DNA of 64,000 bases, taken from contig OX597820.1 of assembly GCA_951406725.2 (NCBI GenBank), positions 43,710,001 to 43,774,000 of the forward strand, given 5' to 3'. The first letter of the stretch is position 1. Each line of letters begins with the position of its first letter. The stretch comes from Octopus vulgaris (Eukaryota). This document shows, in pieces, positions 1,683-59,918 of the stretch. A model generated the notes under the pieces. The model searched no databases and was not told the origin of the DNA. It was given only the letters and a program-made list of their open reading frames with translations. Made by a program: the position numbers and the translations under genes.

Positions 1683-2442
1683 CAACGATGAATCTAATAC
1701 TATTTGTTCTGTGGAAGGGAGCAAAGCAAGAAAAGGTCGGTTATCTTTTGTTATGTTCAGTGCTTACTAACAACTTCTGATAGATTTCCCTCACAGAGCC
1801 TATTTCATACTTTTTAAATTAAATTGAGCGTTCAAGACAAATTTTAACCATCTCATTCTATCTGCCGAACTTATGTCGTAAATATCTGAGGCGAGAGACC
1901 AATGGCAAAAATGAATGAGATTTGTTGTGCCAGAGAACTGGAGAAAACTGACAAGCCATCTTGAAGGTTTTTCATCTTTTGTATTTTTGTTATTTCAGGA
2001 CAAATACACCAAAACCAAATCGGAGAAAGGTTATACCAACTTGATCTGAGACATGAATATATTTACTCATTGTGCCGAGCTGTCTAATCTGCTGTTTAAT
2101 AAAGTGGATGTTATCGTTGAAACGTGAGGACCGTATATCTCTTAGAAGCACACACGATGAAATTAGAACGCAAACGGATGATTTAATATCATATAAACTC
2201 CTACCCAGTCTGAATTATAAGATACTGTGCGATTTATATCTTCCAAACAGCTCAGCACTTTTATTGTCACTCGGCTAAATGAAAATAATCTGCTAGGTCC
2301 AGTATCAATATTTAGTTTCTATCAACATAACATAATTTAAAAGGGGGTTACGAAGAAGAAGCAAGTGAGACGCCGGACGTCTGCTTTCTCTCTGTCTATA
2401 AGTTCTTCTCTATGTCTCTATCTGTCTCCCTATCTCAAAGCA

Positions 2443-2650
2443 AAGTCCTCACTAGATGTGGTAAGGGAGACATCGTATTTATACCTACAATAACACTATT
2501 ACCAACAGATGTCTCCTTTCGTTTCAAACGATTGCAGTTCCCAATGAGAGTCAGTTACGCACTGACCATTAACAAGTCCCAAGGTCAAACACTGCAGGTT
2601 GTCGTTTTCCATCTAGAAGAGAGTTGTTTCTCACATGGTCAATTTTATGT
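2443..2650 (+). pseudogene. Helitron PIF1-type helicase C-terminal fragment
   Basis: Translates KVLTRCGKGDIVFIP..RLQFPMRVSYALTINKSQGQTL..CFSHGQFYV, matching PIF1/Helitron helicase motifs V-VI. Confidence 0.85.
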
Positions 2651-2668
2651 AAATATATATATATATAT

Positions 2669-3516
2669 CGCCCCTCTTCAATTCACGGTTTTGTGGCGGC
2701 ATACGGGACGATTCAAGGCTGTTGAGGAATTTAACAAGAGAATGAACAGCATCATCCTTGTCGATAGATTTATAGATGTGGTTACCTACAGAGATCAGTT
2801 GTAAGAGATTTCTGTTGATGGCACTTACTGTAATGTTTTGAGGAGCTAAGGTTGCTCGTTCACACAGCCACTCCTCGTTGAGACGGTGAATTTCGAAATT
2901 TTGGGAAGACTTGATGAATGAAGGTATCAATGCTTTCCACTATATCACAGAATGATGAGGAATCAAAACACCTTTCAGAATCGAGGGATGTTTTGCCTTC
3001 ATCAAGTTGTAGAATGTTTGAGCAAACTTTGCAGAAACGTCGTCACCGTAAACCTCTGCCCTCGTGTTTGTTCTGAACTTGAGTTTAGTGACACATAGTC
3101 ACAAAGTTGATGATTTTAGGCAAACTCTTACTTAATCTGCGTGAGTTCCCTTCGATATCACAGTTAAAGCTTGTCGGAAGACCCTTGATAAAACAACAGT
3201 GATTCTTCCTATGATTGTTATGCTGTTATGTATATCTTTCAGTGTTTTGTCAAAGGATTCTAATACATGTCTGTGTGCCATTGTGCATTCATTCCCCAAA
3301 ATTGCCAAACACCTTCGAAATATTTGGGCAGCTCCTGAGTCTTTCTTTATATGACACACTGACATGTCATCGAAAAATAAGTGCACAGATATCTGCGGAA
3401 TAGTAAATTAATTTAGATGACACGAAAAACCTGAAATATTATAAATTTTATTTAGTGTTTTCAGCAGTCAAAGTACAGACAAACAAACAAATTGTGCTAT
3501 TTATAAGGCTATAGAT
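2669..3516 (-). pseudogene. Helitron helicase middle fragment plus probable Helitron 5' end
   Basis: Minus-strand ECTMAHRHVLESFDKTLKDI, VVLSRVFRQAL, WLCERATLAPQN, FLNSLESSRMPPQ; TCTATA-like start near 3515. Confidence 0.75.
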
Positions 3517-8759: not shown

Positions 8760-10470
8760 TATTTAGGAAACTACTATAAAACGTCTGGTGCAAGTTAGAT
8801 AATTTCTGTTCCTTTTCTGGTTTTCAAGGTCATTTGGGATTTTGGTTTCCCTAAGTCTTGCTGTGATGCCAGCATATTTTAATAAACATTCTTCACTATT
8901 ACCTACATAGGTGTCTATATCTACTCTAGCTAATCCCACGCAGTCTTCTACTGATATTAACCCTCTTCTTCCTTTCTTTCTAGGTAAGTATAATCTTGCT
9001 ACCCTTGCCCTTGGGTGAAGTCCTCCATTCATATTGAATTCCTTCCGAGTTTATCTCTCCAGCTTTGCTAATTGAGTTTTTGTCCAACCTAGAAAAGCTG
9101 CTGGATATCAAAGTAATGATACTGCCCAAGTATTTACAGCCTTCACTAGATTCGGACCATTTAGTTTTGACTTCATTAGCTTCCTCGCCCTTCTGATATA
9201 CTTCTCAATTTTCGTTTTCCCTCTGTAGTACTGCTCAGTTAGATTCTTATACTTCTAGATATTTATAACTCTCCTCCTTTCAATGATTTTAATGCCTGAC
9301 CATCTGGTAATTGGATGCCTTCGCTGTTGACTACCTGTCACCTTCTTATGATTAATATTGCACACTTATCTAAGCCAAACCCCATGCCTATATCTTTGCT
9401 GAAGTGTCTTACAGTCTGTATGAAGGTATCTATCTCTTTTTCATTCTTACTAAAAAGCTTCAGATCGTCCAAACAGAGCAAATGTTTAATTTTTCCCTTA
9501 CTATTTCTGAACTGATACCATGTTTTGCCTTCCTTAATACTAAACTGAAGGGGATCAAATAAAGGATAAATATTAAAGGAGACAACGAGTCCCCCTGAAA
9601 AATTCCTCTTTTGATATTAACTTTCCCTAAGAGTTTGTCACCTGAATAGAGATCTAATTTCCATTTCTTCAGGCTAAAGTTAATTAATTCTCTTATGATG
9701 CCTGCTATACTGAATAAAATCCAACATTCTTTTATCCATGAGTGAGGCACCATGTCATAGGCTTGCCTATAATATATCCATGATATTGTTAGATTTTTCT
9801 TTCTAGCTTTTACTTCATTTAAAACTGCTTTGTCTATACATATAATAGATCATACATTCCTCTAGCCTTCTTCCAGCAACCTTTCTTTTCTTCTGGCAGT
9901 AAACTCTGGTTGTTGAAGTGCTCGTAAATGCTTTCTGTAAACATTCCTGTTAACAGCTTCCACACTAATGTTAAGCAAGTGATTGGTCTATAGTTGGTAT
10001 CTGTATTATCCTTGCTCTTATATTTCATAATGAGTATTGCCCTCCCTCTATTCATCAAATCAATATTATTCCTCAATTAAGTCAATCCTGAAATTGTTCC
10101 CCCAGTCTCCCACGTAGGCCCTAAATTACTTTAGCCAGTACATTTGCAACTAAATTATGACTGACTGGTTTATCCCAAATATTACCCCATAACTTTCTAG
10201 CTTCTTCTGCATTAAGTTTCTCATCTTCATTACTTCGATCTCCACTATATATTTGGTTATAAAATCTTCTTTGCTCTGTCTCAAATACTCTATATTCTTT
10301 TCTGATATCTGCTATGATACGCTGTTTCAACACTTATATTACTGTCTCAAATCCTTTCTCTTTGACTAAGTATCTTTTCTCAAGGGAATATTTGCATCTT
10401 GTGTTTTCTAACTTGTTCAATTTCTAGGCTTCTATTCTACTCAAGTCTTTATTTTGTAGTCTCCTAACAG
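8760..10470 (-). pseudogene. Decayed non-LTR retrotransposon RT (R4/Dong-like)
   Basis: Frameshifted NYRPITCL..WKLLTG, MVPHSWI, KRGIFQGDSLSPLIF, LHPRARVARLYLPRKKGRRGL. Confidence 0.9.
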
Positions 10471-16269: not shown

Positions 16270-16546
16270 AAAAACACCTAAAAGCTCCACGAGGCTCCGG
16301 CAGGGGATGGTGGTGATCCCTGCTGTACTCTTTCACCACAACTTTCTCTCACTCTTACTTCCTGTTCCTGTTGCACCTGTATTTCAAGGGGCCGGCCTTG
16401 TCACTCTCTGTGTCACGCTGAATACGTTAAGGATGCACGTGTCTGTGGAGTGCTCAGCCACTTACACGTTAATTTCACGAGCAGGCTGTTCCGTTGATTC
16501 GGATCAACCGGAACCCTCATCGTCGTAACCGACGGAGTGCTTCCAC
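16270..16546 (+). mobile_element. tRNA-derived SINE family C, 5'-truncated
   Basis: Matches the body and tail of the full copy at 59529-59918. Confidence 0.85.
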
Positions 16547-17219: not shown

Positions 17220-17677
17220 AGAAATGGTATTTATCGCCACATTATTATGGCTGTTCGACACTACTGCTGTTTTTAACTCCAGGCAGATCTTCCGCCAGCT
17301 GGTTGCCGGTGCAACCTGCACTCTGTATATATTTATGACGGATCTCTTTCAGTTTGCAATGTTTCGGTTGATTTTGAGTATTAATATAAGTTACTTGCCG
17401 AAGGTGAGACTAACCGAAGATTACATGATTCGAAAGCTAACTTCTTAGCCCCACAGCAACATGTTTCAACTCAGTGGCATAATTGTTTTTATTAATGCCA
17501 CTTGTTTCTCATCGTTCGAAAGAGACACCAAACGGATCCCACAAGTCCTGCAAAATTACAAGGACTACTCCTTCCCCCAGGCTCAGCAAGGAAAAAGAAA
17601 AGAGAAAACGTATTTACAAGGTAAGTACAAAGGTCATCATCATTGATACAATATATTGCAGTAGTATTGCTTGAATA

Positions 17678-18072
17678 TCTTTATATATAAAAGTGAAGTT
17701 GTGTGTCTGTCTCCTATGATTTAGATTCCTAACTACTCCCACATTTTGCGGTGCAGTTTAACCAAAACCGGGTATCTTATAGTCGTGATTCATATCGAGC
17801 CCTTCTGGGTGTTAGCGCGCGTCTACGATGAGTCTACGATTTAAAAAAAAAATTACCATCATTTTTTTCATTTTAATGCATTTTTTCGCTATTATATAAG
17901 GGAAGTAACTCTCTAAAAATGTCTACGACGAGTCAACGATTTTTAAAAAATTTACCATATTTTTTTTTCCATTTTTAATGCTTTTTTTGCTATTTTTTGG
18001 CTATAACTCTCTAAAAATGCTTATATAGTTATTTCCCTTACAAACCCGAGCAACGCCGGTCGATACTGCTAG
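17678..18072 (+). mobile_element. Non-autonomous Helitron (copy 1 of 3)
   Basis: 5' TC, 3' CTAG, subterminal hairpin CCCGAGCAACGCCGG, inserted between A and T with no TSD. Confidence 0.9.
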
Positions 18073-18762
18073 TCCCATATAAAAGAAAAACATCAGTGAA
18101 TGCATTGCCAAAATAAAATTAAGAGAAATACAGATTTTCCACGATTAAATATATTTTACAGCACTGTATCACGGAAAATAATCGTATTTGTGACTTGAGT
18201 CGTTACCCGTGTTTTTCTGTCTTTGAATGACCGCAACTAAGGTAGCAGACATTTTGGTCTAAAGTAGTGATCCTGGAAATTACAGGCGCTGAACTAGATT
18301 CAAATCCCTTTTCTGGAATCAAGCTATCACAAGTTTGTTGTAGGTTATCTTTTGTGCATTCGTGTGGGGAATGGGGGTGTTTGTGTGTGTGTTCGTATTT
18401 GTATGTGTTTATGTCCCATGTACGTCTGTATCTCAAAGAGTACTGTGTCCTTTATAAAAGGCGATACATGAGATTCCCCAGCCTTTCCTTCGATCAGCCT
18501 GGTCATTAGCCACTACGTGTTCGATTCGCAATGGTCCCACTGGAATGGCCTGAGACAACTAAATAAGGATCATGCATGCTTACCCAAGTAACAAGCTACT
18601 AGCGCCTTGCAAAGTCAACTTGTTATATCAATTTGGTCTCCCGTAGTTACTTGAATACAAACACCGTTCTTTCAGTAGCATGTTAATGACATACATACAT
18701 ACATGCTTACATAAATACATGAATATATACACACATACCTGCATGCATACATACATGCATGC

Positions 18763-18888: not shown

Positions 18889-19569
18889 CATCTGTTGTAG
18901 TAAGTCAAAGATTGGATTTCACAGTTATTTGGAAGTTGCTCAACAGCAATTGTTCATGCTTTGAAGTTATTGATATGTCCCCAAGAGCTTATAAGAGAGT
19001 TGAATATCTATACATTTTACTCAGCGTTTACATAAGATATAGTAGATGTGATGGAAAACTGGTAGTAGTTACATTACACTTAACATAATATCCGATTATG
19101 CAACGCAAGCTCTTGGTAATTTCTTCTTGTTTTATTATCTAACAGTGTTAATTTCTGCTATTATTCTTTTCTTTATGACACTGCATTATTTCTGCTCTTT
19201 TATATCTGTAGTTTACAGAGTTTGACAAGATCATTCCATCAGTGTTCTTTCATCGTATGAGCAAGTTTAATTTCTAATCACAGCAGCTTGAATATTTATC
19301 TTGATTATTTGCTTACATTGTTGCAATGTATCGTCTTTTGACATCATACCTCGTATGTAACTAAAATTGTGATAGCGGTTATCGAATTAATGTTGGCACG
19401 TATTTCATAATATTTATTTGAGGTTTTCTGATTCACGGAATGGTGTGCATAAAATTTATGCATAACATTCCGTGAATCAGAAAAACTCTAATACATTCAA
19501 ATATTAGAAATCCTGATTATGAGAGTACAACCAAGTTTCCTAAAATTTAGATTTATTTTATTTCACCTG

Positions 19570-23363: not shown

Positions 23364-23918
23364 GAGTGAGCGAGCAGAGCATGCCATCAAAGTGACACTG
23401 GGGTAAAATATACGAAGCCCAGTATACCCATCATGACTACCCGACTGATAAGGGTACACCAGGCACATGCATCACAACTATATGTGCGCGACATGGTGAT
23501 CTCATATCAAGATAAACAGCACATGACCTTGCAGGTGGAGCCCAGTTAGAATTTTCTTCAGATCGAGTAACCCATCCCGCTCAAAAGGTCCCTGAATAAG
23601 GGTTGTTTAAGGACGTTGAACGAAACACCCATGTTTCCAGAGGTGAATTATTCAAACCCCAAAGAATCCTTCTCAACACATGGCTATGATGCTCCCCCAC
23701 TACTTCTGCTCGTGATCAGAGATGCACATATCGTCAGCCACTAAGGGACATGCTCAACTGGTTAAGGTGAAACAACTGACAAGCAAATCTGTGCTATTGA
23801 GCAGAATATTTGCTGTAGCCCATCTTTTATACCAAGACAAAACAATGTACATGATAACACTTCCAATCAGTTAAGATCAGAAGCCATGAGAGCCACTGCC
23901 TGGTACTGCATCAGGGCA
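23364..23918 (-). mobile_element. ~555 bp non-coding retroposon inserted in (TAA)n, copy 1
   Basis: Close match to 24050-24603 and partial match to 59041-59357; (ATT)n on both sides. Confidence 0.85.
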
Positions 23919-24035
<117 letters not shown>

Positions 24036-27120: not shown

Positions 27121-27211
27121 AGCATCAGCATCGCAGTGAAGTATATGAAAACAATAACTACTGCCGTTGTTGCTTATATGTATGTGTATGTGTGTGCATT
27201 TGACAGGTAAG

Positions 27212-27890
27212 AACACAGACAGGTAAGAAAGAAAGAATGAAATGACGGCAATCTATCATACAATTTTAAGTTACCTACGGACGTAGGTGAGGCAATTCGT
27301 TGCTAAACCCTTAATTACTTAGTATTACTTAAATTTTCCTCGAATGGGGCTTTTACATGCCGAAATCTACTAGGTGTAATTGATAATTATTCCAAATTAA
27401 TTAATTTCACCCTTTATTATTACTGATAACCATATTTTATCCCAGTAAATGACCGCAGCATTTTGTCTTGGCTACACGCGGGTGGAAGGGGGCTGGTGAC
27501 ACAAACTTTCATTCAAACTTTGAATTTCGTGGTACTGGTCATGCTTTGGCTCGCTCTGACACTGAGTTGAGATAATGCCTTCTAGTATCTCAAAATTTAA
27601 TATACAATTATTCATAATTGTAGTATCCTGCGCCGATGAGAAAAGAAGTTTGGGTAAAGTAGAATTTTCTAATTCTTATGCTCTCCTAAAACTTGATTTC
27701 GAAACATACGTCCGTAGGTAACTTAAAATTGTATGATAGATTGCCGTCATTTCATTCTTTCTTTCTTACCTGTCTGTGTTTGCCTTTCAGGTGCTGTGTT
27801 TTTACTGAGATCCCCCTTTTAGTAGAAGGAATAGCTATATCTCTTTGACTGCTATTTCTAAATTCGGTGTGTTGGGGCAATTACTTAGTA
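27212..27890 (+). mobile_element. HHR-bearing non-coding element (retrozyme/Penelope pLTR-like), ~588 nt monomer with 74 bp inverted 5' arm
   Basis: 27212-27285 is the reverse complement of 27707-27780; unit start GGTGAGGCAATT (27286) recurs in shortened form at ~27874; second copy at 56245-56721. Confidence 0.75.
27627..27718 (+). ncRNA. Type I hammerhead ribozyme, CCGAUGA core, long helix II
   Basis: CCUGCG CCGAUGA GAAA..UUUC GAAAC AUAC GUC CGUAGG; predicted cut after C27712. Confidence 0.8.
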
Positions 27891-27912: not shown

Positions 27913-28082
27913 ACGGCGGTGAGTTGGCAGAAACGTTAGCACGCCGGACAAAATGCTTAGCGGTATTTCGTCAACTTTCCCTTTTATCCTTTCGGGGACG
28001 ATAAATTGAGTACCAGTTGCGTACTGAGGTCGATCTAATCGATTGGCCCAAATTTCCGGCCTTATGCCTAGAGTAGAAAGGT
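27913..28082 (+). mobile_element. SINE family A, internally deleted
   Basis: Head and core match the family. Confidence 0.75.
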
Positions 28083-28084
28083 AT

Positions 28085-28132
<48 letters not shown>

Positions 28133-31859: not shown

Positions 31860-33138
31860 TGAGATATTTTCATTAAAGATTTCCCTTGACCAGCTTCACA
31901 AGGACTGGGATAAACGAAACTTGGCATAATTATTAGTCCTTCTCTACATAGCCACCACCATTGGTAACACACTTCTCCCATCATTCTATGCAGCTTTGCG
32001 GTCTTCGTCTGTAAAAGTCGGTAGGTTGCGTCTGAACCCAAGATTTTACCTCGGAAATAAGTTCATCATCATACGAAAAGTGCTTCCCCTTCAAAAACAA
32101 CTTCATGATTGGAAAGAGATGGAATACAGATGGTGCGAGGTCGGGAAACTAAGGATCGTGAGGAAGGACTTCACAGCCGCTTGAGTGTGCTTTCATCTCA
32201 GCAACATGCGCATTGTGAAGTGGGGCGTTGTTTTGGAGGAGGCGGACTCCTTTGGTCAGCATGCCACGTCTCTCTGCTTTAATGGCTTCCCGCAATTTCC
32301 GCAGCAGAGAAGCGTAATATACTCCGTTAATTGTGGTACCCTTTGGCAGAAAATCCATCATCACTACTCTGCGCTGATCCAAAAATACAGTGAGCATCAC
32401 CTTGCCTGCTGAGGGTTGGACACGAGCCTTCTTTTGAGGTGATGAGTTATCATGCTTACATTGCTTCGACTGGACTTTAATCCCAAGATCATAGTGACAG
32501 ACCCATTTTTTATCCTGTGTGATAAGTCTGCCGAAAACGTACTCCTCGTTTTCTTGGCACATTGCCAAAAGTGCCAGGGAGAAATTGATTTGGTTCCTGC
32601 ATTTGAAAAGGTGTGAGCATCTGGGAATCCATAATGCAGGAAACTCCGCATGTGCAAATGGTCACCAATGACTTTTTCCAAGAACTCTACACTTATCTTC
32701 ACTTCTTCGGCTAGATGCCGAATCGTCCAAATTGGCCGCTTCCACTCCATGGATGGTGTCGTCATCAATGGCAAGATATGGTCGTCCAAGAATAGGAGCA
32801 CTTTTCACCGGCGATTGACAACATTTGAACTGGCGTCACCAGTTCTTGTCTACGTCGTATGATGGTGCATCGTCACCATACACTTCTGTCATCTCATTAA
32901 AAGTCTCTTTTGGTCTACGACCTTTCAAGTATAAGAACCTGATCACTGATCTGCATTCAACTGCCTCCATTATAACACCACATTCCACTTCAGCAGCCGT
33001 AAAAGACAAACGAATGCTAGTGAGAAGCTGCAATTTACAATGTAACATGTAGAGACATGTATGATTATATTTGTACAAGTTCCGTTTCCTGCAATAACCT
33101 CGAGTGGGTCAGAGGCAATCCTTAATGAACATCCCTCG
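31860..33138 (-). mobile_element. Full-length decayed mariner transposon
   Basis: RSVIRFLYLKG..VYGDDA, LITQDKKWVCHYD, SAGKVMLTVF, LLQNNAPLH, PDLAPS; degenerate TIRs with TA flanks; ~1.28 kb. Confidence 0.9.
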
Positions 33139-34809
33139 TAATGTATGAGTCAGTGTGTGCACGTGTGTTTTTTGTACGTATGTTGTTCTGTATCCAGAAC
33201 TACAGGGCAACCAGTCACTCGTAATTTGATTTTGACTTTCGTTTAAAGGCATTCAGCTTTATTCATGTCATCATATCTGTTGCGTAAAATTCCTTTCCAA
33301 ATAAATGTCATTCATTTCTGTGCATTGTCATGCAATTTTTTAATATTTATGATGCATACACTAATAGAAATGCATAGAAATTAATGTAGAAAATAAACAT
33401 GGAGCGCAAATGATATATTAAACAATATGACTAACCTGTGTGCTTCATTAGCTAGCTTTGAAAGGATCTGTGATGGTTATCTTCCCAGTCTCTCTTATTC
33501 CGGTGTGTTAATGTTTTACATAAAGCGTTGCAAGTCAATGACTGAAAGAAAGGCATGTCCGGGACTGGAATTTTCGTGGACTTACGACCTGATGTAGAAT
33601 GACGTGTTCACTACAGTAGAGATTGGTTGGAGGTTGGACGCAAAATAGGATATAAAAAGAAGAAAAACGGGTGAGATGGGAGTGGCAGTATAGAGGTGAT
33701 AGAGAACTAATCAGATCCGAGGAGTAGAAGCCATTGTAATAGTTTTAGGAAAGGCACGGAAAGAAATCGGCACCTGAGGAACCGGTTTATCTCCAACTGA
33801 TTTTGCACCAATTAGAATACGACTGTTATTTCTATGCGATATAGGGTCTCTGTGTGGGTTGTAATATTTATGACCAAGATGTCGAAACAATAACCTTTTG
33901 CGGGTCCCACTTAAGTTTTATAGAATAATTTAATGTGGGGACGAAATATGTTTACCTTTAAAGAAATGGTCAGTTTTTGAGATGCAGGGATATCTACGCA
34001 TGCTATGGATATGTATTTGCCATGACAGATCATATCGATGATCAAGAATGTTCTAGGAGTGTGTTGCTAACATTTATGCGCTGAGGACAAGAAGATGTTT
34101 CATTTAATGTTGTGTTGTATTTAGTTTATCCAGTGCCTTTTTTAATATATTCAGACAGTGTTGACGTGACCCACTTAAACATTGCTATCAATGCAAATTT
34201 GGTTTGCAGTGACTATGATAAAATGGTTAGAAACAGAACTTAGTATTTTAGCAAATAATAATGTTGTGAAGAAAATATCATCACATAATATTGCTCCAAT
34301 ACTAAAAGACTTTAAAATGGCAATTGATGAATTCATCTGACTTGGGATGAGAACCTGCATCATTATCATCAACACACGAAGCCTACAAGTTTATTTTCTT
34401 ATCAATGGTCATATCGCAGCTCTCTTTAGACATACTCTGCTTGTAATTCCTTCTTAGAATTGTAGCTGAAATGTTTCTTTATCTACAGTTCGTACGAAAT
34501 TTGTGAGTTCCTAAGTTTTAACGTTAAATAAGCACTCATAGTTTACATGAATTACTTTTGTGTATCTCAAAGCTTTCTTTTTTTACAATCTCATCACAAA
34601 CAACCTGGAATTCAATAATTCCCCCTTCGGATTATTTCAAAGCAAATAAGAAAAATCAAAAAAATCATTAAAAATTACCTCTTTTAAGCAAGTTGTATAA
34701 TAGGGTTTATTGTCTCGTCGACATTTTCCCTATTGATCAAGAGTATGTGAATGTTGGTTCTGTTTAAACGAAGTAGACTGATGCCATGACATTCTAGTTT
34801 GTCCTCCAT

Positions 34810-35285
34810 CATTTCTCTTTCCGTTCACATACCTCAACATTTTACAAAGCCGGTGGTGCTTAATTTCGCCCACTATATATGGCGTTAACAGCTGTTTCCC
34901 GGACAGTATGCCCAACTAATTCCAGTATTACCAGTTACAGAAACCTGTATCAGTTTTATATTCGACGCCTCTACTTACAGCATAGAAATGCATTCTCTAT
35001 CTACTTCCCTTTAAGGAAAGTCGATTGTTGAAAATTAAATGTCTAACTCTCCCCTTCAACATTTCTCTTTCCGTTCACATACCTCAACATTCTACAAAGC
35101 CTTAAAGTACTTAATTTCGTCCACTATATATGGCGTTAACACCTGTTTCCCGGACAGTATGCCCAACTAATCTCAGTAATACGAGTTACAGAAACCTTCA
35201 GTTTTACATTCTCATTGAACTGCATCCTCTACCTTTCTCCCTTTAAGAAAAGTCGGTTGTTGAGAAGTAAAAGTCTAACCTTCCC
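34810..35285. repeat. Diverged tandem duplication, period ~249 bp
   Basis: CATTTCTCTTTCCGTTCACATACCTCAACATT at 34810 and 35059, with continued similarity. Confidence 0.85.
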
Positions 35286-36513: not shown

Positions 36514-36569
36514 AAATATAATACTGCACGTATATTTTAGTGTGTGCTTCTTTTCCGGATATATATATA

Positions 36570-36968
36570 CTAGCAGTATCGCCCGGCGTTGCTCGGGTTT
36601 GTAAGGGAAATAACTATATAAGCATTTTTAGAGAGTTATAGCCAAAAAATAGCAAAAAATGCATTAAAATATGGAAAAAAAATGATGGTAAATTTTTTTT
36701 TAAATCGTTGACTCAACGTAGACATTTTTAGAGAGTTACTTCCCTTTTTTTAATAGCGAAAAAAATGCATAAAAATGGGGAAAAAATTATGGTAATTTTT
36801 TTTAAATCGTAGACTCATCGTAGAAGCGCGCTAATACCCAGAAGGGCTCGATATGAATCACGACTATAAGATACCCGGTTTTGGTTAAACTGCACCGCAA
36901 AATGTGGGAGTAGTTAGGAATCTAAATCGTAGGAGACAGACACACAACTTGACTTTTATATATAAAGA
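36570..36968 (-). mobile_element. Non-autonomous Helitron (copy 2 of 3)
   Basis: Reverse complement of 17678-18072 with TC/CTAG ends. Confidence 0.9.
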
Positions 36969-39734
36969 TATATACGTATACATATCGTATATATCGGAGG
37001 AAGGGGAGGCGGAGGCAGAGGAGGTAGAGGAAGGGGAGGAAAGGAGAAAGGGAGGGGATAAAAGGCGGAGGAAGAGGAGAAAAAGAAGAACAGCAACAAC
37101 AAGAGGAAAAGACAAACAGGAAGAAGAAAGGAGGGGAGAGGGGGAGGAAGAAGAGGAGGAGGAGAAGAAGAAGAAGAAGAAGAAGAAGAAGAAGAAGAAG
37201 AAGAAGAAGAAGAAGAAGAAGAAAAAGAAGAAGATAAAGAAGAAGAAGAAGATTAGTGTACCGTTTCTGTGTATCTCAATGAAAATAGTGACATATTCTA
37301 TGTCAAAATTTTGAATTGGCAATTTGTTTACTAATACACACTTTAAAATGATGGATAGAAAAAAGAAAAATGAGAAAAAGCAGCGAAAGGTACAGGAGGA
37401 GGAGGAGGCATTGGGTCACATATCCCAAACACAAGTGGGGTGCTTAAATCGCTGCACAAACATCGAAATAGAGAAACTAATTTAATCAGTTCGGTAGGTT
37501 GCATCAATGCAATTCTATGGTACCCAGGATTTTGAATACAACTAAAAGGTTCCTTCGTCGGATGCAATGATGATCATTCTAGCTGCTCAATCAACAACGA
37601 ATTTACTGAATTACCTTGAAGTGGTTTAGTATTTCAGTCACGTGTCGTCTTAATATATTCATGATGCACAATTACTGTAACATGTTCTGCAACAGAAGAA
37701 TCCTTTGAATTACAGGTACAATGCACCCGAGAGATTTCAATACAATTTTCGTGTGACCGGTTTGATTCTAAGCTTGAGGTTAATCTGTGGTTAAGGTTAG
37801 GTAGTAACGTAGGAGACACATCCAAGATGCTACGCATTGTGATCAATTCAATGACGTCATGAACGTTATACGAACTTGTCATCCAGTGGACTGTGCTTGT
37901 GCTTAGCACTTGTAGCAATGAAACATCCATTCAGAATATTTTGTGGAATTGCGGGTCTCAAAGCAAATCCATCAATACAAGTAGAGAATAGAAACATAAA
38001 GAAAAAAAACATTGCGTCGGCATTATCATTTGCTGAATCACAAAAAATGAATGCCGAGGTGTCAGCGGTGTGTCCCATCGCACTACGAGGTCACGGGACA
38101 ATAAATTCATAACAAATCGATAACCATAGTGGTTATGATTTTTGTTTTCGTTTATTCATCTATTTATTTATTTTAATGTTGATTACTTCGATAGATGTTT
38201 TCCAAGACCTAATTTGCAAAAGTATTTTAATATTTCGATGAAAACAAAAATCAGTATTACTACGAGAAAGGAAGTACTGCACAGCTATTTCCTAATTTTG
38301 TCACACTACAATGAGCAGCATTAGTATTCGTGATGTTATTTAATTACTCTTTGCCTCAGATCTAATATTTCTTAATTATAACATTTTTTTCCTCCTTAAC
38401 AGAATACAAGTAAGGTCAAAACGTGCCATTTTGTAGGAATATTAATTTTATTTCATTTTGAAATTTGTAAGAAATTTATATTTAAAAAAATAGGAAAATA
38501 TGTAGGTGGGAAGGTGTGGAGGATAAATGTTAAATTCCATTGAGATTGTAAAGAGAACGTTTATTTCTGTTTTCATTCATTTATTCCTTTCGGTGGGGTA
38601 AATGTCGGTTTAAAAACAAGAATAAAATTTCAATGAAAATAAAAATATAAAAATGTTTATAAATGAAAGAAGCAATAGAATGGGAAATAGAGAAAGACCG
38701 AAGATGAAGAGAGAGTGATTGGGTGGAAGTCAGAAAGAGAAGAGAGAGACAGGAAGGAATTGGAGCCGATTTGCTGCAAAAAGAAATAAAGGCAAGAATA
38801 TAGAAACGAAAGTAATTAAGGAAAGAAAGAATTGAATGGAGATAAAGAGAAACGATAAGTTAAAGATTCTAATGAAACCATGGGGAGAGGAATGAAAGCG
38901 ATATAGGTTTCCGTTGATTAGTCACAAAGAGCTGTAAATTTTTGTCGGATAAATGGGTAGGGATATTAAATGTGGCCAGCATTCATACCGGTTCCTCCTG
39001 AAATGAGCTATTTTTCATTTTCTATTGAGGGTTGAAACAGAATAGTTCACTCTTGGTTTTTACAGCTCCCACCAAAATGGAAATATCGTTATAGAAAACA
39101 ACGTAAATGCATAAACAAATAAGGTTTGCACAGATAAAAAAAAAAAACAGTAAAGGAACAGAATAATTAATAAAAATAAAGAGTGAAACTAAAACAAACG
39201 AAATATAATGAAAAGAAGCAAGAGGTAAACGATAAACAATATATCTGTTGTCAAGAATTAAGTAAATGTGTGTTAAGAAATTTATTTTGTTTTCTCTGAT
39301 ATGAAAAGTATTACTTTTTATGTTTTTATGTTTCTAATTTCTTTGTATTCACTTCTGTTATTCTCTTTCTATTTGTGTTGGTTACTTGACAGGAAAAAAA
39401 AAACACGAAAGATAAAGACAGAATAAAATGGACAGCATTGAAATTTAACAAATGATTGTTGATGGTATCCTAGAAAAAAAAAGAGGTCAAATGGTACCAC
39501 CAAATAATTGACCTCTGTAGAAAGATTGCGTTGATCAAAGTAAGCACTGAAACAATATATAACAATAATAGCACCGGTAGTACTAATAATAGTAATAATC
39601 GAAATAACAATAAGATTGTTATTGTTTTTTGTTTTGCTTTTTGCCAAAGGGCCCAACACGTTGGGGACAGTAGAAAGATGGGAACAAACAATGAATATAT
39701 AAGAATTCGTGTGTGAGTTATTGTGTGCTTGTGT

Positions 39735-40048: not shown

Positions 40049-40056
40049 GTTGTGCG

Positions 40057-40345
40057 TGGAGGCGCAATGGCCCAGTGGTTAGGGCAGCGGACTCGCGGTT
40101 GTAGGATCGCGACTTCGATTCCCAGACCGGGCGTTGTGAGTGTTTATTGAGCGAAAACCCCTAAAGCTCCACGAGCCTCCGGCATGGGGTGGTGGCAATC
40201 ACTGCTGTACTCTTCGCTATAACTTTCTCTCTTTCTTCTGTTGGCCTGCCCGCTTAGCGGGTTGGCGTCATTTGAAGGCTAAAACAATGCGAAGCGCATT
40301 GTGACCAGCGATGTGTAGCAGCAGCTGATAGCCTGGTCGGTCACG

Positions 40346-40757: not shown

Positions 40758-41064
40758 TATACATACATATGTACATATATATATATATACACACACACAT
40801 ATACATTTTACTCATATATATATATATATATATATAATTAATCAATATAGGGTGGCAAAAAAAAATTTTGTAGAATTCTTTTGCCACCAGCGGCCTAGTG
40901 GGAAAAAATTAAATAGTCATAAACCATTTTTAAGTTCAACATCAACAATCAAGGAACGGCCATAATAGGCCATTCACCCACTAGAAATAACAGCCAAACG
41001 CTTTAACCGCAAAATAACGTTAATTCCGTAAACCAGGAGAAAATTGAAAAACATTTACCCTGTA

Positions 41065-41171
41065 ATTTCTTAGACGATGCACCGTTTCATCTTCTGTTTA
41101 ATGGAAAACTAACCTGATTAAATTAAATCAAGCCAATCCACCATAGGCCCTTAGATTCATCAGTAAGAAAT
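41065..41171 (-). ncRNA. Type I hammerhead ribozyme (mirror copy)
   Basis: Reverse complement of 41414-41520. Confidence 0.85.
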
Positions 41172-41413
41172 AGCCAAACCGGAACAGATATTTTTTACGA
41201 GGCATTCTCATTGCTACCTCGTCAATATCTGACCTAAAATTTTCAAATCGTCGCACTCGCGCCAAATTTATCGGCAGCAAATAAATATAAGCCGCCGATT
41301 CCATTTGCTGCCGATAAATTTGGCGCGAGTGCGACGATTTGAAAATTTTAGGTCAGATATTGACGAGGTAGCAATGAGAATGCCTCGTGAAAAATATCTG
41401 TTCCGGTTTGGCT

Positions 41414-41520
41414 ATTTCTTACTGATGAATCTAAGGGCCTATGGTGGATTGGCTTGATTTAATTTAATCAGGTTAGTTTTCCATTAAACAGAAGATGAAA
41501 CGGTGCATCGTCTAAGAAAT
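41414..41520 (+). ncRNA. Type I hammerhead ribozyme, canonical core, long helix II
   Basis: AUUUCUUA CUGAUGA AUCU..AGAU GAAAC GGUGCAUC GUC UAAGAAAU; 8 bp perfect helix I; predicted cut after C41512. Confidence 0.88.
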
Positions 41521-41641
41521 TACAGGGTAAATGTTTTTCAATTTTCTCCTGGTTTACGGAATTAACGTTATTTTGCGGTTAAAGCGTTTGGCTGTTATTT
41601 CTAGTGGGTGAATGGCCTATTATGGCCGTTCCTTGATTGTT

Positions 41642-41677
<36 letters not shown>

Positions 41678-41967
41678 TATACATTTTACTCATATACACA
41701 TGTGATTATATGATATACATTTTCGTGTGTTTGTATATATGTGGGAGGGTTTCTGCATAGTAGAAACGCTTAATACGTTGAATGTTGTTTTTAATCTTAT
41801 TACAGTAAGGAAAGCTTCTGCTTTTTTTTATATATTGCATATAGATGACAGAGGAAATATGGGACGGAAAATCTGAATACAATTGCCAAAATATATACCA
41901 GAAATCTTCCTCGAGACGAAGTCCGAAACACTAACTCCACTAAGGCAAAATGGAAATTTATAATAAT

Positions 41968-42823
41968 ATTTTCAAATTTTGCCACAAGGGCAGCAATTTT
42001 GTGGCAGGCAATGAGTCGATTACATCGATCCCAGTGTTCAGCTAGTATTTGATTTATTGAATGCGAAAGGATGAATGGCAAAGTCGACCTCAACGGAATT
42101 TGATCTCAGAAAGTAACGACATGCGAAATACCGCTAAGCGTTTTGTATAGCGTGCTAACGATTCCGCGTGTTGGCTGCCTTAGTGATAATAATAACTATT
42201 TCTACTGTAGGCACAACGCCTGGATTTTGTAGGGTGAGGAACAGTCGATCACATCGACCCCAGTACTCAACTGGTAGTTAATTTATTGAACCTGAAAGGA
42301 TGAAAGACAAAGTTGACTCCGGCGGAATATGAACTCAGAACGTAGCGGCAAACGAAATACTGCTAAGCATTTCGCCCGGCGTGCTAAAGATTCTGCCAAC
42401 ACACCGCCGTAGTGATAATAATAATGGTTTCGAATTTTGCCACAAGGGCATCAATTTTGAGGGAGGGGACTAGTCGATTACATCGACCCCAGTGTTCAAC
42501 TGGTATTTATTTTATCGATCCCGAACGGATGAAAGGCAAGGTCGGCCTAGGTGGAATTTGAACTCAGAACGTAGCGTCAGAAGAAAACTTCTTATTTCTT
42601 TACTACCCACAAGGGGCTAAACACAGAGGGACAAACAAGGACAGACAAGCGGATGAAGTCGATTACATCGACCCCAGTACGTAACTTGTACTTGTTTAAT
42701 CGACCCCGAAAGGATGAAAGGCAAAGTCGACCTCGGCGGAATTTGAACTCAGAACGTAGCGGCAGACGAAATACCACTCAGCATTTCGCCCGGCGTGCTA
42801 ATGTTTCTGCCAGCTCGCCGCCT
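41968..42823 (-). mobile_element. Tandem array of four family A SINE units
   Basis: ACATCGA(C/T)CCCAGT..GGATGAA..TG A(A/T)CTCAGAA module repeated at ~42020, 42250, 42480, 42665. Confidence 0.85.
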
Positions 42824-42861
42824 TAGTAATAATAATAATGATAATAATAATATACTACTAC

Positions 42862-45600: not shown

Positions 45601-46340
45601 GACGCAGGTGTAGTTGTGTGGTAAAAAGCACCATAGGTGGCGAGCTGGCAGAAACGTTAGCACGCTGGGCGAAATCCTTGGCGTTATTTCGTCTGCCGTT
45701 ACGTTCTGAGTTCAAATTACGCCGATGTCGACTTTGCCTTTCATCCTTTCCGGGTCGATAAATTAAGTACCAGTTACACGCTGGGGGCGATATAATCGAC
45801 TTAATCCCTTTGTCTGTCCTTGTTTGTCCCTTCTGTGTTTAGTCCCTTGTGGGTAGTAAAGAAATAGGTATTTCGCCTGCCGCTACGTTCTGAGTTCAAA
45901 TTCCGCGGAGGTCGATTTTGCCTTTCATCCTTTTGGGGTCGATTAAATAAGTACCAGTTACGCACTGGGGTCGATATGATCGACTTAATCCTTGTTTGTC
46001 CCCTCTGTGTATAGCCCCTTGTGGGCAGTAAAGAAATAAGTACCTTGGGCAAGTGTCTTCTACTGTAGCCTTGGGCCAAAAAAGCCTTGTGAGTGGATTT
46101 GGTAGACAGAAAGTGAAGGAAGCCCGCCGTATATGTATATGTTTGTATGTCTGTATTTGTCCCTTGACAACCGATGCTGGTGTGTTTACGTCCCTGCAAC
46201 TTAGCAGTTCGGCAAAAGATGACGATAGAATAAGTATTAGACTTACAAAAAATAAGTCCCGGAGTCGATTCGTTTGACTAAGGATGGTGCTCCAGCATGG
46301 CCACAGACGAATCACTGAAACAAGTAAAAGAATAAAAGAA
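45601..46340 (+). mobile_element. SINE family B interrupted by a dimeric family A SINE (45637-46042)
   Basis: B head at 45601; resumes CCTTGGGCAAGTGTCTTCTAC at 46043; tail ACTGAAACAAGTAAAAGAATAAAAGAA. Confidence 0.8.
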
Positions 46341-50730: not shown

Positions 50731-51909
50731 TCATTCTTCAAATATGCTCAAATCTTGTATCATGATAATCACCACCAAATGTATGATCACATGATTGTGA
50801 CACAATTAATTTAAATAAAATTATTTATATACCAGGTTTATGGAATTATATATTCGGTGGTGTTTATCCTAATGACACAGCTACATATACTTGTCCTACA
50901 AAGTCTTCTTGATTTTGACCGATCAACTTTCGGCCTACCCGTGCATTGCTTCTACAAGATTATTCCCTTACTTTTAAACACCATCCTGGCTTTCCTATTA
51001 TCGTCTCTCCAGCTTTATGTTTACACAGAAATGCGTCCACAGTATTCATCCCTGTATGTAGTTTTGTTTTTCTGATGCAACAAAATTTATGTTGGTAAAA
51101 GATGCAACAACTTCTACTCAAGCACATTTATCCATTTTTGATTCCTTCTTCGATCCACTATACTTCTCTTACATCAGTGACGTCGTTGGGAAAGATATAA
51201 ACGGCAAATAATATTCTTCCTCTAATAATATCAATGGTCTTGTGCCAATAAAAGAAATCAATATTTCTTACTGTTTGAATCGTCTGTCTGTTAGTTTCGA
51301 AAGAAATTAATTTGCTTATTCAGACAAAGAAACCGAACCGAATTTAATATAAGGAATATAGGTAAGGGAATGAATGTGAACTTGTAAAAACAAGCAAGCC
51401 AGAACAAAAGTGGAGTGGAGTGTATTGGTGAACTTACTCAATTACTACAAACTTCGTGAGACTAGGTTGAAACTGTACATATATGTGACATCTAACGACA
51501 GACAGTGTCTGCTTCTGTGATATTTCGGGCATGAATATTGAAGATGTTGGGTGATAAAAACAAAGGAATACTCTGCTTAGGGGTAATGCTCATTAAGCCT
51601 TAATTATATATGTGTGTAAGATGAAGGAGGCAGTGTTAGCTACAACAAAGCCAGAACCATTATTTTATATTGGTTTACATAGGGATTTCAAATCCTTTAA
51701 GCACATATGCTCTTTCAGCATCAGTAGTAGTATGGAGTCCTGCACGACAAATGAAGTATGTGATTATATCAAAATCTTTAAAACATAAAGATGCTGATCA
51801 TATTTTAGCGGGGGAAAATGGAAGGGAATGAGTGACGCAATTGAAGTAAAACTACACGAAATTAAGCATCAAAACACGGACACGGTTTCAGGCTCACAAA
51901 ATGTTCAAT

Positions 51910-52320
51910 CTTATTTCTTTACTCCCCACAAGGGGCTAAACACAGAGAAGACAAACAAGGACAGACAAAGGGATTAAGTCCATTACATCGACCCCAGTGC
52001 GTAACTGGTACTTAATTTAATCGACCCCGAAAGAATGAAAGGTAAAGTCGACCTCGGTGGAATTTGAACTCAGAATGTAGTGGCAGACGAAATACCTATT
52101 TCTTTACTACCCACAAGGGGCTAAACACAGAGAAGACAAACAAGGACAGACAAAGGGATTAAGTCGATTACATCGACCCCAGTGCGTAACTGGTACTTAA
52201 TTTATTGATCCCGAAAGGATGAAAGGCAAAGTGGCCCTAAGCTGAATTTGAACTCAGAACGTAGCGGCAGGCGAAATACTGCTAAGCATATCGCCCGGCG
52301 TGCTAACGTTTCTGCCAGCT
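51910..52320 (-). mobile_element. Dimeric family A SINE
   Basis: Two ~185 bp units joined at AAAGAAATA|GGTATTTCG (minus strand). Confidence 0.85.
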
Positions 52321-55126: not shown

Positions 55127-55139
55127 CTATGTAAGGAAA

Positions 55140-55538
55140 TCTTTATATATAAAAGTCAAGTTGTGTGTCTGTCTCCTACGATTTAGATTCCTAACTACTC
55201 CCACATTTTGCGGTGCAGTTTAACCAAAACCGGGTATCTTATAGTCGTGATTCATATCGAGCCCTTCTGGGTATTAGCGCGCGTCTACGATGAGTCTACG
55301 ATTTAAAAAAAAATTTACCATCATTTTTTTCCATTTTAATGCATTTTTTTCGCTATTATATAAGGGAAGTAACTCTCTAAAAATGTCTACGATGAGTCAA
55401 CGATTTTGTAAAAAATTTACCATCATTTTTTTTTTCATTTTTAATGCATTTTTTTGCTATTTTTTGGCTATAATTCTCTAAAAATGCTTATATAGTTATT
55501 TCCCTTACAAACCCGAGCAACGCCGGGCGATATGCTAG
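55140..55538 (+). mobile_element. Non-autonomous Helitron (copy 3 of 3)
   Basis: A|TC..CCCGAGCAACGCCGGG..CTAG|T. Confidence 0.9.
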
Positions 55539-56244
55539 TGATTATATAAAAATATGCGTGGCGTTCTTTTACTGGATAATGAATATTTACAGTAAGAGCT
55601 GATTTGCCTCCTTTAGTTTCTCATTCTGCGTTGTATACTTTGTGTATGTTGAGCTAGATTTGATCATGATTGAAACGGGTACTAACAAAGTTTTTAGATC
55701 AAGGCAAAGTGTGTGAATTAGAGACGTTTTCCATATTTGATTAGTTCCTAAAAAAGGTAGATTTCAAACTGAAGCTGTAGGCCCTGTGTGACCTATTGTC
55801 ATGATTCACGAGTGTTTGACGAAATGAATGACAATTGAAACATCCAAATGAGTAACTAATGTGATTGTTTTAAATATTCCGTATCTTCTGCATATGGTAT
55901 ATTAGCCGTCAAATGTTCAGGTTTCTTTAATTCACGTACACATGAATTCAGAGCGCCGACTTCTGGATATATATTTGCGCATTCTCGGTTTTTAAGTAAC
56001 CTGCTAACATGAACGAAGTTGCCATCGCCTCAGATTGATAGATAGACATATAGATAGATTTATTCATACATGCATACATACATACATACATACATACATA
56101 AATACATACATACAAACATACCTACATACATATATGCATAAACATACACACATACGCATGTATATACATTGGTATATACATATATAGATATACATACATG
56201 CATTTAGATGTATATATATGTTTATACATATATATATATATATA

Positions 56245-56717
56245 GTTATCAGTAATAATAATAAAGGGTGAAATTACACGCGGGTGGAAGGGGGCTGGTG
56301 ACACAAACTTTCATTCAAACTTTGAATTTCGTGGTACTGGTCATGCTTTGGCTCGCTCTGACACTGAGTTGAGATGATGCATTCTAGTATCTCAAAATTT
56401 AATATACAATTATTCATAATTGTCGTATCCTGCGCCGATGAGAGAAGAAGTTTGGGTAAAGTAGAATTTTCTAATCCTTATGCTATCCTAAAACTTGATC
56501 TCGAAACGTACGTCCGTAGGTAACTTAAAATTGCATGATAGATTGCCGTCATTTCATTCTTTCTTTCTTACCTGTCTGTGTTTGCCTTTCAAGTGCTGTG
56601 TTTTTACTGAGATCACCCTTTTAGTAGAAGGAATAGCTATATCTCTTTGACTGCTATTTCTAAATTCGGTGTGTTGGTGAGGCAATTCGTTGCTAAACCC
56701 TTAATTACTTAGTATTA

Positions 56718-56721
<4 letters not shown>
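56245..56721 (+). mobile_element. Second copy of the HHR-bearing element, between (TA)n tracts, with a short 5' inversion
   Basis: 56275-56677 matches 27473-27875; 56245-56276 is an inverted copy of 27402-27430; 3' end runs into the sequence that starts the 27286 unit. Confidence 0.8.
56429..56520 (+). ncRNA. Type I hammerhead ribozyme, CCGAUGA core, palindromic helix III
   Basis: CCUGCG CCGAUGA GAGA..UCUC GAAAC GUAC GUC CGUAGG; predicted cut after C56514. Confidence 0.82.
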
Positions 56722-59528: not shown

Positions 59529-59918
59529 TGGAATGGAAGCACTCCGTCGGTTACGACGACGGGAGTTCCGGTTGATCCGAATCAACGGAACAGCCTGCTC
59601 GGGAAATTAACGTGTAAGTGGCTGAGCACTCCACAGACACGTGTACCCTTAACGTAGTTCTCGGGGATATTCAGCGTGACACAGAGAGTGACAAGGCCGG
59701 CCCTTTGAAATACAGGTACGACAGAAATAGGAAGTAAGAGTGAGAGAAAGTTGTGGTGAAAGAGCACAGCAGGGATCACCACTATTCCTGCCGGAGCCTC
59801 GTGGAGCTTTTAGGTGTTTTCGCTCAATAAACACTCACAACGCCCGGTCTGGGAATCGAAACCGCGATCCTACGACCGCGAGTCCACTGCCCTAACCACT
59901 GGGCCATTGCGCCTCCAC
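59529..59918 (-). mobile_element. Full-length tRNA-derived SINE family C with 12 bp TSD
   Basis: TSD CAGGCTTAACAA at 59517-28 and 59919-30; A-box TGGCCCAGTGG, B-box GTTTCGATTCC. Confidence 0.9.

Follow-up and report, generated by a model that had tools for sequence, protein, structure and literature searches.

Two insertions in a stretch of AT-rich animal DNA, rich in microsatellites and SINE-like repeats, raise the question of what kind of template they were copied from. The stretch (the window: all 64,000 nt, or 64 kb, of Octopus vulgaris DNA analysed here) contains two copies of a short sequence, each with a hammerhead ribozyme (HHR), and the sequence with which the unit starts in one copy is the sequence with which the other ends. 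A sequence-only reading took the copies for circular permutations of one monomer, copied from a circular or tandem RNA in the manner of retrozymes. Do the copies bear this out, or do they belong with the Penelope-like elements (PLEs), of which the O. vulgaris genome has 190 families (6.83% of the genome), 31 of them recently active (PMC13282606)?

Organization of the two copies

The copies, A and B, are composed as follows:

27202–27890: copy A, whole
27202–27211, minus strand: outermost 10 nt of copy A, within a 12-nt duplication (27202–27213 = 27218–27229)
27212–27285, minus strand: inverted arm of copy A, the 74-nt exact reverse complement of 27707–27780
27286–27331, plus strand: 'tail'-like terminal repeat of 46 nt that matches the 3' end of copy B without mismatch
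27332–27626, plus strand: body 5' of the ribozyme; left arm of the predicted rod from 27355; includes a weak second intron-like stretch, 27374–27445
27627–27718, plus strand: type I hammerhead of copy A
27718–27790, plus strand: intron-like stretch of copy A, 73 nt, GT..AG, with pyrimidine tract
27791–27873, plus strand: segment between intron-like stretch and tail; right arm of the rod
27874–27890, plus strand: shortened tail, the 3' end of copy A, with 3-nt and 19-nt deletions; (TA)n follows
56245–56721: copy B, whole
56245–56276, minus strand: 5' inversion of copy B, 32 nt, equal to 27402–27430 plus a 3-nt insertion; (TA)n precedes
56275–56721, plus strand: forward part of copy B, equal to 27473–27873 plus the full tail; (TA)n follows
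56429–56520, plus strand: hammerhead of copy B
56520–56592, plus strand: intron-like stretch of copy B, acceptor AA instead of AG

Much of what had been read from the ends holds exactly. The 46-mer at the start of the unit in copy A is the end of copy B (56676–56721), and it occurs in the window at these two sites only, 27286 and 56676 (BLAST E 5e-17); the exact run between A and B is these 46 nt, with no extension 5'. Copy A ends, as claimed, with a version of the 46-mer shortened by the two deletions. The unit so reconstructed, 27286–27873, is 588 nt long, has a GC content of 36% and contains one type I HHR; copy A amounts to 1.03 unit and copy B to 0.76. Between them 412 aligned positions match and 11 are substituted, and the stretch 27332–27401 and the junction 27331/27332 are present in copy A only. 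BLAST and nhmmer found no further copies in the window beyond A, B and their inversions (two matches of 44–46 nt, E 0.02–0.05, were set aside as weak). Neither copy contains a tandem array or a second complete HHR, and there is no array in the window. An exact 22-nt motif had no match in bacterial or archaeal genomes.

Both copies begin with an inversion, and A has the 46-nt direct repeat besides. The inverted arm of A spans most of the intron-like stretch and carries A's own allele at 27732, the one arm site at which A and B differ; the 12-nt duplication is probably a primer slip where the arm begins. The arm had been thought to stop within about 6 nt of the predicted cleavage site. The distance is right, but the arm overshoots the scissile bond (27712/27713), extending 6 nt past it to end at 27707. 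The short inversion of copy B, noticed earlier as well, overlaps the forward part by 2 nt.

The unit is without an ORF, as had been reported: the longest that begins with ATG in the circularized unit has 48 codons on the plus strand and 47 on the minus. The ORF of an autonomous PLE (telomerase-like RT plus GIY-YIG endonuclease) was not found in the unit by ORF scan or Pfam, which gave no match for the unit's three frames and GIY-YIG in none of the 122 window frames scanned. Nor is an ORF remnant recognizable in the 341 nt 5' of the HHR, although the searches used frames of 40–42 aa and the evidence is accordingly weak. For the 40-aa frame 27453–27572, none of 13 candidates matched, and two 'significant' representative hits were rejected as sums of many 20–22-bit matches to a tandem repeat; of the two, only P0045 was compared, and P0046 has three of its four spurious Pfam families. 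One 48-codon frame crosses the entire ribozyme from an ATG in copy A (27575–27718) and, by eye, is open in B too (56377–56520). We rejected it as coding because the opposite strand has 47 codons and such lengths are at chance level; in an Anolis PLE the ORF likewise starts within the HHR.

The hammerhead and the stretch that follows it

The ribozyme has the features of a type I hammerhead with one core variant, U4C. In copy A, it comprises a stem I of 6 bp (27627–27632 with 27713–27718), the core CCGAUGA that includes U4C, a 61-nt stem II arm and GAAA. Cleavage is predicted after C27712 in copy A and after C56514 in copy B. Stem III of copy B is an intact 8-nt palindrome with a self-duplex of −9.8 kcal/mol, versus −2.1 in copy A, where the palindrome is broken at 27706; the HHR descriptor scan detects B and misses A. 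With a strict descriptor the window yielded three hits, namely B and the two arms of a second family described below, whereas none of 20 shuffles yielded any; a weak HHR-like match at 23737–23624 on the minus strand stood at shuffle level and was discarded. Rfam had no match in the window at the gathering score. At an E-value threshold, Hammerhead_1 (RF00163) scored highest of six matches in 56380–56580, with 18 bits (E 0.067) against the 34 required for gathering, and the full model was covered, with a 57-nt insert.

Pairing probabilities are 0.99 for stem I and 0.98 for the base of stem II; in the minimum free energy structure both stems form and the core is mispaired. A compensatory pair in stem II, A27642–T27698 in copy A and G56444–C56500 in copy B (P ~0.03 by simulation), accounts for two of the 11 differences between the copies, and two others break predicted pairs. 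U4C is a natural HHR variant, much less active in vitro, that yet permits viroid infectivity (PMC3088659), and PLE hammerheads typically have a palindromic helix III and cleave as dimers (PMC4209133; PMC6765202). A hammerhead with a palindromic stem III and a U4C core would be expected to cleave slowly, and as a dimer. It does not match the HHR of Hydra-1_Obim, and on this difference identity with that element was rejected.

Six nucleotides after the cleavage site begins the 73-nt GT..AG stretch with its pyrimidine tract, the donor of which overlaps stem I. It scores better than 99.8% of background anchors (10 of 6821 score equally well) on what is a crude measure, built on the splice consensus and with thresholds set from the observed site. 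The second intron-like stretch, 27374–27445 (72 nt), follows an ATG at 27356 and coincides almost exactly with a side branch looped out from the rod; 298 of the 6821 anchors (4%) score as well, however, and we treat it as a lead only.

Neighboring repeats

The window contains another HHR, at 40838–41644, in a head-to-head palindrome whose arms differ at one site. The core is canonical and stem II long in both arms (41414–41520 on the plus strand, its mirror on the minus; Rfam E 0.0054). Just 3' of the ribozyme lies a 78-nt intron-like stretch, 41527–41604, equaled in score by 16 of the 6821 anchors, and the order of A and B, HHR then intron-like stretch, is repeated at 41414–41604. (TA)n stands at both ends, and the left arm is longer at its 3' end by 104 nt. 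The two HHR families show no homology, their best local match being 17 nt; judged by sequence, 40838–41644 appears to be a second PLE-like family, unrelated to A and B.

Other repeats are plentiful. A SINE-like family is abundant (27913–28085, and for example 41960–42840, 45635–46040 and 51909–52320), with head-to-tail multimers frequent; one copy comes after the (TA)n that borders copy A on the 3' side. A peptide from one such repeat, 85% identical to an O. vulgaris hypothetical protein, was the sole match among 28 candidates. A young family of ~400 nt (17675–18073, 36560–36971 and 55139–55548; 94–97% identity), with a 3' hairpin and then CTAG, presumably resembles a non-autonomous Helitron. 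Decayed transposon fragments at 2331–3407, 9341–9849 and 32149–33108 represent a PIF1-like helicase, a LINE-type RT and a mariner transposase. An imperfect palindrome of 85 nt (19412–19496) and two inverted repeat pairs of 88–91% identity (19570–19706/20210–20346 and 10969–11154/19706–19902) are possibly MITE-like. Two more interspersed families, one at 16271–16545, 40056–40237 and 59534–59918, the other at 23923–24366/59040–59489, have identities of 84–90%. A tandem of two ~240-nt copies, 80% identical, lies at 34803–35285; the descriptor scan found no HHR there.

Fold of the unit

Folded as a circle, the unit reaches −149.3 kcal/mol, compared with −120.3 ± 5.6 for shuffles (z −5.2; 0 of 60 as low), with 66% of its bases paired. 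When the HHR was held fixed and the rest shuffled in 60-nt blocks, 0 of 40 were as low. From 27355/27872 inward as far as the HHR the helices are nested, forming a rod over 518 of the 588 nt, in register across 27443–27512 and 27733–27807; the rod juxtaposes the two cleavage ends, and the 46-nt tail lies in its open loop, with no pairs outside itself. The arm-to-arm duplex has z −4.0 (0 of 200 shuffles as low), and linear copy A has z −3.3 by the folding tool's built-in shuffle. For the portion common to B the duplex falls to a non-significant z −0.85 (35 of 200 shuffles as low) and the linear fold to z −2.6. In the second family, too, the arms give good folds (z −3.4 and −5.0), and so structure of this kind is not specific to circles: in the model, a linear pLTR can form every rod helix equally, and so can a long transcript whose ends pair.

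Ends, targets and the template

If the copies had been reinserted from a circle at random, their ends should scatter, and on this point the idea of circular permutation finds no support. A and B have 3' ends at one site, no more than ~7 nt apart, leading into (TA)n in both; (TA)n is present at either end of B but only 3' of A. No target-site duplication above 4 bp is discernible by eye in the flanks, and B lies inside (TA)n. Both copies combine a 5' truncation, a fixed 3' end and a short tail, though two is a small number. By analogy with the Anolis PLE protein, which in vitro cuts AT-rich DNA on both strands, uses mainly uncleaved RNA as substrate, and begins reverse transcription at fixed internal sites, by which the tail is defined, one shared 3' end in (TA)n looks like a mark of PLEs, left by an RT start that is internal and fixed (PMC11167929). 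The 3' ends, the (TA)n, the 5' inversions and an intron-like stretch after the HHR are likewise, by analogy, PLE traits.

The notion of a circular or tandem RNA template fares better in other respects: the HHR junction has been read through and the intron-like stretch left unspliced in both copies and in A's arm, and copy A extends, in this one case, over one unit and 46 nt. The arm crosses the cleavage site and ends halfway through the palindrome of stem III, and so retains no trace of a cleaved RNA 5' end; the template must have been uncut or ligated there, or else RT jumped between juxtaposed ends. Since the arm duplicates sequence within the forward part, it requires no tandem template by itself. 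The closure is seen at one junction, 27331/27332, once, exactly where B ends. A natural junction crossed as RT enters its second lap is expected to have the same sequence as a partial tandem that arose by re-priming, and a partial tandem formed during insertion could produce the same closure. To go by this one copy, a stop soon after one lap would be expected of a circle on which RT stalls against its own cDNA, whereas an uncut tandem transcript would give such a stop by chance in roughly 46 of 588 cases. Among PLEs, single units flanked by a short direct repeat have been described, as have partial tandems and copies inverted at the 5' end (PMC2377424; PMC8557442), and circular templates have been proposed for PLEs (PMC4209133).

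Competing explanations

That the element is related to PLEs at all we consider very likely. It is probably, we think, a non-autonomous, ORF-less derivative, a mini-PLE or retrozyme-like monomer of ~588 nt mobilized in trans. Its RNA would, by computation, form a rod that carries the type I hammerhead at one tip and leaves the 46-nt tail in an open loop at the other, and would be copied in trans by a PLE RT/GIY-YIG protein. The PLE endonuclease would nick (TA)n and, within the tail loop, RT would begin at a fixed internal site; the copies themselves show the TA targets and the fixed ends, and the endonuclease and RT step is borrowed from the Anolis work (PMC11167929). RT would then cross the ribozyme junction on an uncleaved or ligated, unspliced template, the read-through itself being visible in A, in B and in the arm of A. 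In the case of copy A, RT would have gone once round the unit and 46 nt farther, provided that the junction is a natural one. The other DNA strand would prime inside the same RNA and so leave the 5' inversion, a step that we take to resemble L1 twin priming. Given the mini-PLE explanation, a covalent circle as the template has, in our estimate, somewhat less than an even chance.

A bolder proposal, to which we give a low probability as a whole, is that the element is a circular RNA that bears an intron and parasitizes the Penelope elements of a cephalopod, and that PLE RT starts in the open loop of the circle, completes one lap, and stalls ~46 nt into the second on its own cDNA. Because the donor site overlaps stem I, splicing and self-cleavage would on this proposal compete, the one leading to exported RNA and the other to circle. 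If this is true, PLE retrotransposition from a circular template would have left a direct footprint of itself in the genome in these copies, and short direct repeats and the formation of pLTRs would be accounted for.

A plainer account, somewhat unlikely in our judgment, derives A and B from an autonomous PLE, of which they would be the 3' ends (pLTR and tail) left by 5' truncation. Closure in A would then reflect re-priming by RT at its standard start, with a 46-nt upstream piece making a minimal partial tandem, or a one-off internal deletion within 27332–27372. The junction does coincide with B's 3' end; partial tandems, inverted copies and tails of 30–40 bp are normal in PLEs (PMC8557442), ORFs flanked by 34-bp direct repeats are known (PMC2377424), the window holds only two copies, and its second family has ordinary truncated PLE-like ends. 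Other points fit it poorly. The 341 nt 5' of the HHR are without the expected ORF remnant (on the weak evidence of 40–42-aa frames); with the base of the 518-nt rod at 27355/27872, chance truncation would need to have stopped just 23 nt outside it; and the special length of both pieces would amount to a double coincidence.

One type I HHR per unit, a GC content of 36%, a rod-like circular fold and a length within the 51–972 bp of vertebrate families (bioRxiv 10.64898/2026.07.22.740005) would all suit a classical non-LTR retrozyme, the unit of a tandem array, abundant as circRNA and reinserted from random start points. Such an origin is nevertheless improbable: the 3' ends are common to both copies and not random, there is no array in the window, the intron-like stretch, inversions and tail are PLE traits, and the U4C core and 61-nt stem II are unlike canonical retrozyme HHRs. 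Rearrangement at the DNA level, or misassembly of a single old repeat, is more improbable by far. PLE-type structures are known to trouble assemblies (PMC8557442), and identity between the arm and its forward partner is 100%; yet the loci differ at 11 sites and in their inversions and junction details, they have a common end site in (TA)n, and A's allele is present in the arm, as a single RT event would give.

Comparison with known systems

The pLTR ends of EN+ PLEs (Penelope/Poseidon, Neptune, Hydra; PMC8557442, PMC3846280, PMC2377424, PMC11167929) are the natural comparison. PLEs are described as having 5' truncations, partial tandems, inverted 5' copies, tails of 30–40 bp and (TA)n targets (PMC8557442; PMC3846280; PMC2377424; PMC8969392), and Penelope has a 75-bp intron in its pLTR (PMC8557442; PMC2377424). 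The octopus element resembles the EN+ PLEs in its HHR near the 3' end, its 5' truncation, the inverted copy at its 5' end, its short tail at a fixed RT start, its (TA)n targets and a cleavage site that is read through, and its intron-like stretch may correspond to their retained intron of ~75 nt. It differs in that the unit lacks an RT/EN ORF, and the inversions of A and B start internally, not from the element's 3' end. In the unit the intron-like stretch comes after the cleavage site, whereas in D. virilis the intron's 3' end abuts helix I at its 5' end.

In metazoans, non-LTR retrozymes consist of HHR repeats in tandem, with expression as circles of 170–400 nt (PMC7229834), and a preprint (bioRxiv 10.64898/2026.07.22.740005) derives retrozymes from PLE pLTRs, with consensus lengths of 51–972 bp and many monomers among them. 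Like these, the unit is non-coding, a few hundred nucleotides long and low in GC, with one type I HHR, a palindromic stem III and a self-paired circular fold; unlike them, it occurs as 1.03 and 0.76 unit and not in arrays, exceeds at 588 nt the 170–400 nt of the circRNAs tested, and has a U4C core, a 61-nt stem II and an intron-like stretch. Of the marks by which retrozymes are recognized, a highly self-paired monomer that leaves the HHR foldable is present (z −5.2, with stems I and II formed), but in this window each insertion has one HHR and not two consecutive units, and for that reason we file it as a PLE-derived non-autonomous element rather than an active retrozyme. In the literature searched, which took in few subscription papers and not Repbase/Dfam, no HHR element of this sort is described for cephalopods, nor, with PMC5680766 included, a retrozyme with its own intron. 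Four motifs, two per HHR family, had no matches in the PMC8557442 supplement, which holds Naiad, Chlamys and Hydra consensi only and whose wrapped lines may hide matches.

As a class, non-autonomous PLE derivatives are already known. In Chlamydomonas (PMC8557442; PMC9977147), MRC1 and Chlamys-N4_cRei are likewise ORF-less partners of PLEs that make pLTRs and target microsatellites, a likeness drawn from their descriptions; these, however, are algal, and most Chlamys PLEs lack canonical HHRs. The octopus element is real, well-formed and young, and is unusual for its U4C core, its long stem II and an intron-like stretch set against stem I; a circular template is a possibility, not a result. The family touches on two questions, the role of hammerheads in PLEs and the regeneration of their partial tandems. 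Being young, ORF-less and of only 588 nt, it offers a compact test, in which the distribution of copy lengths would separate circle from tandem.
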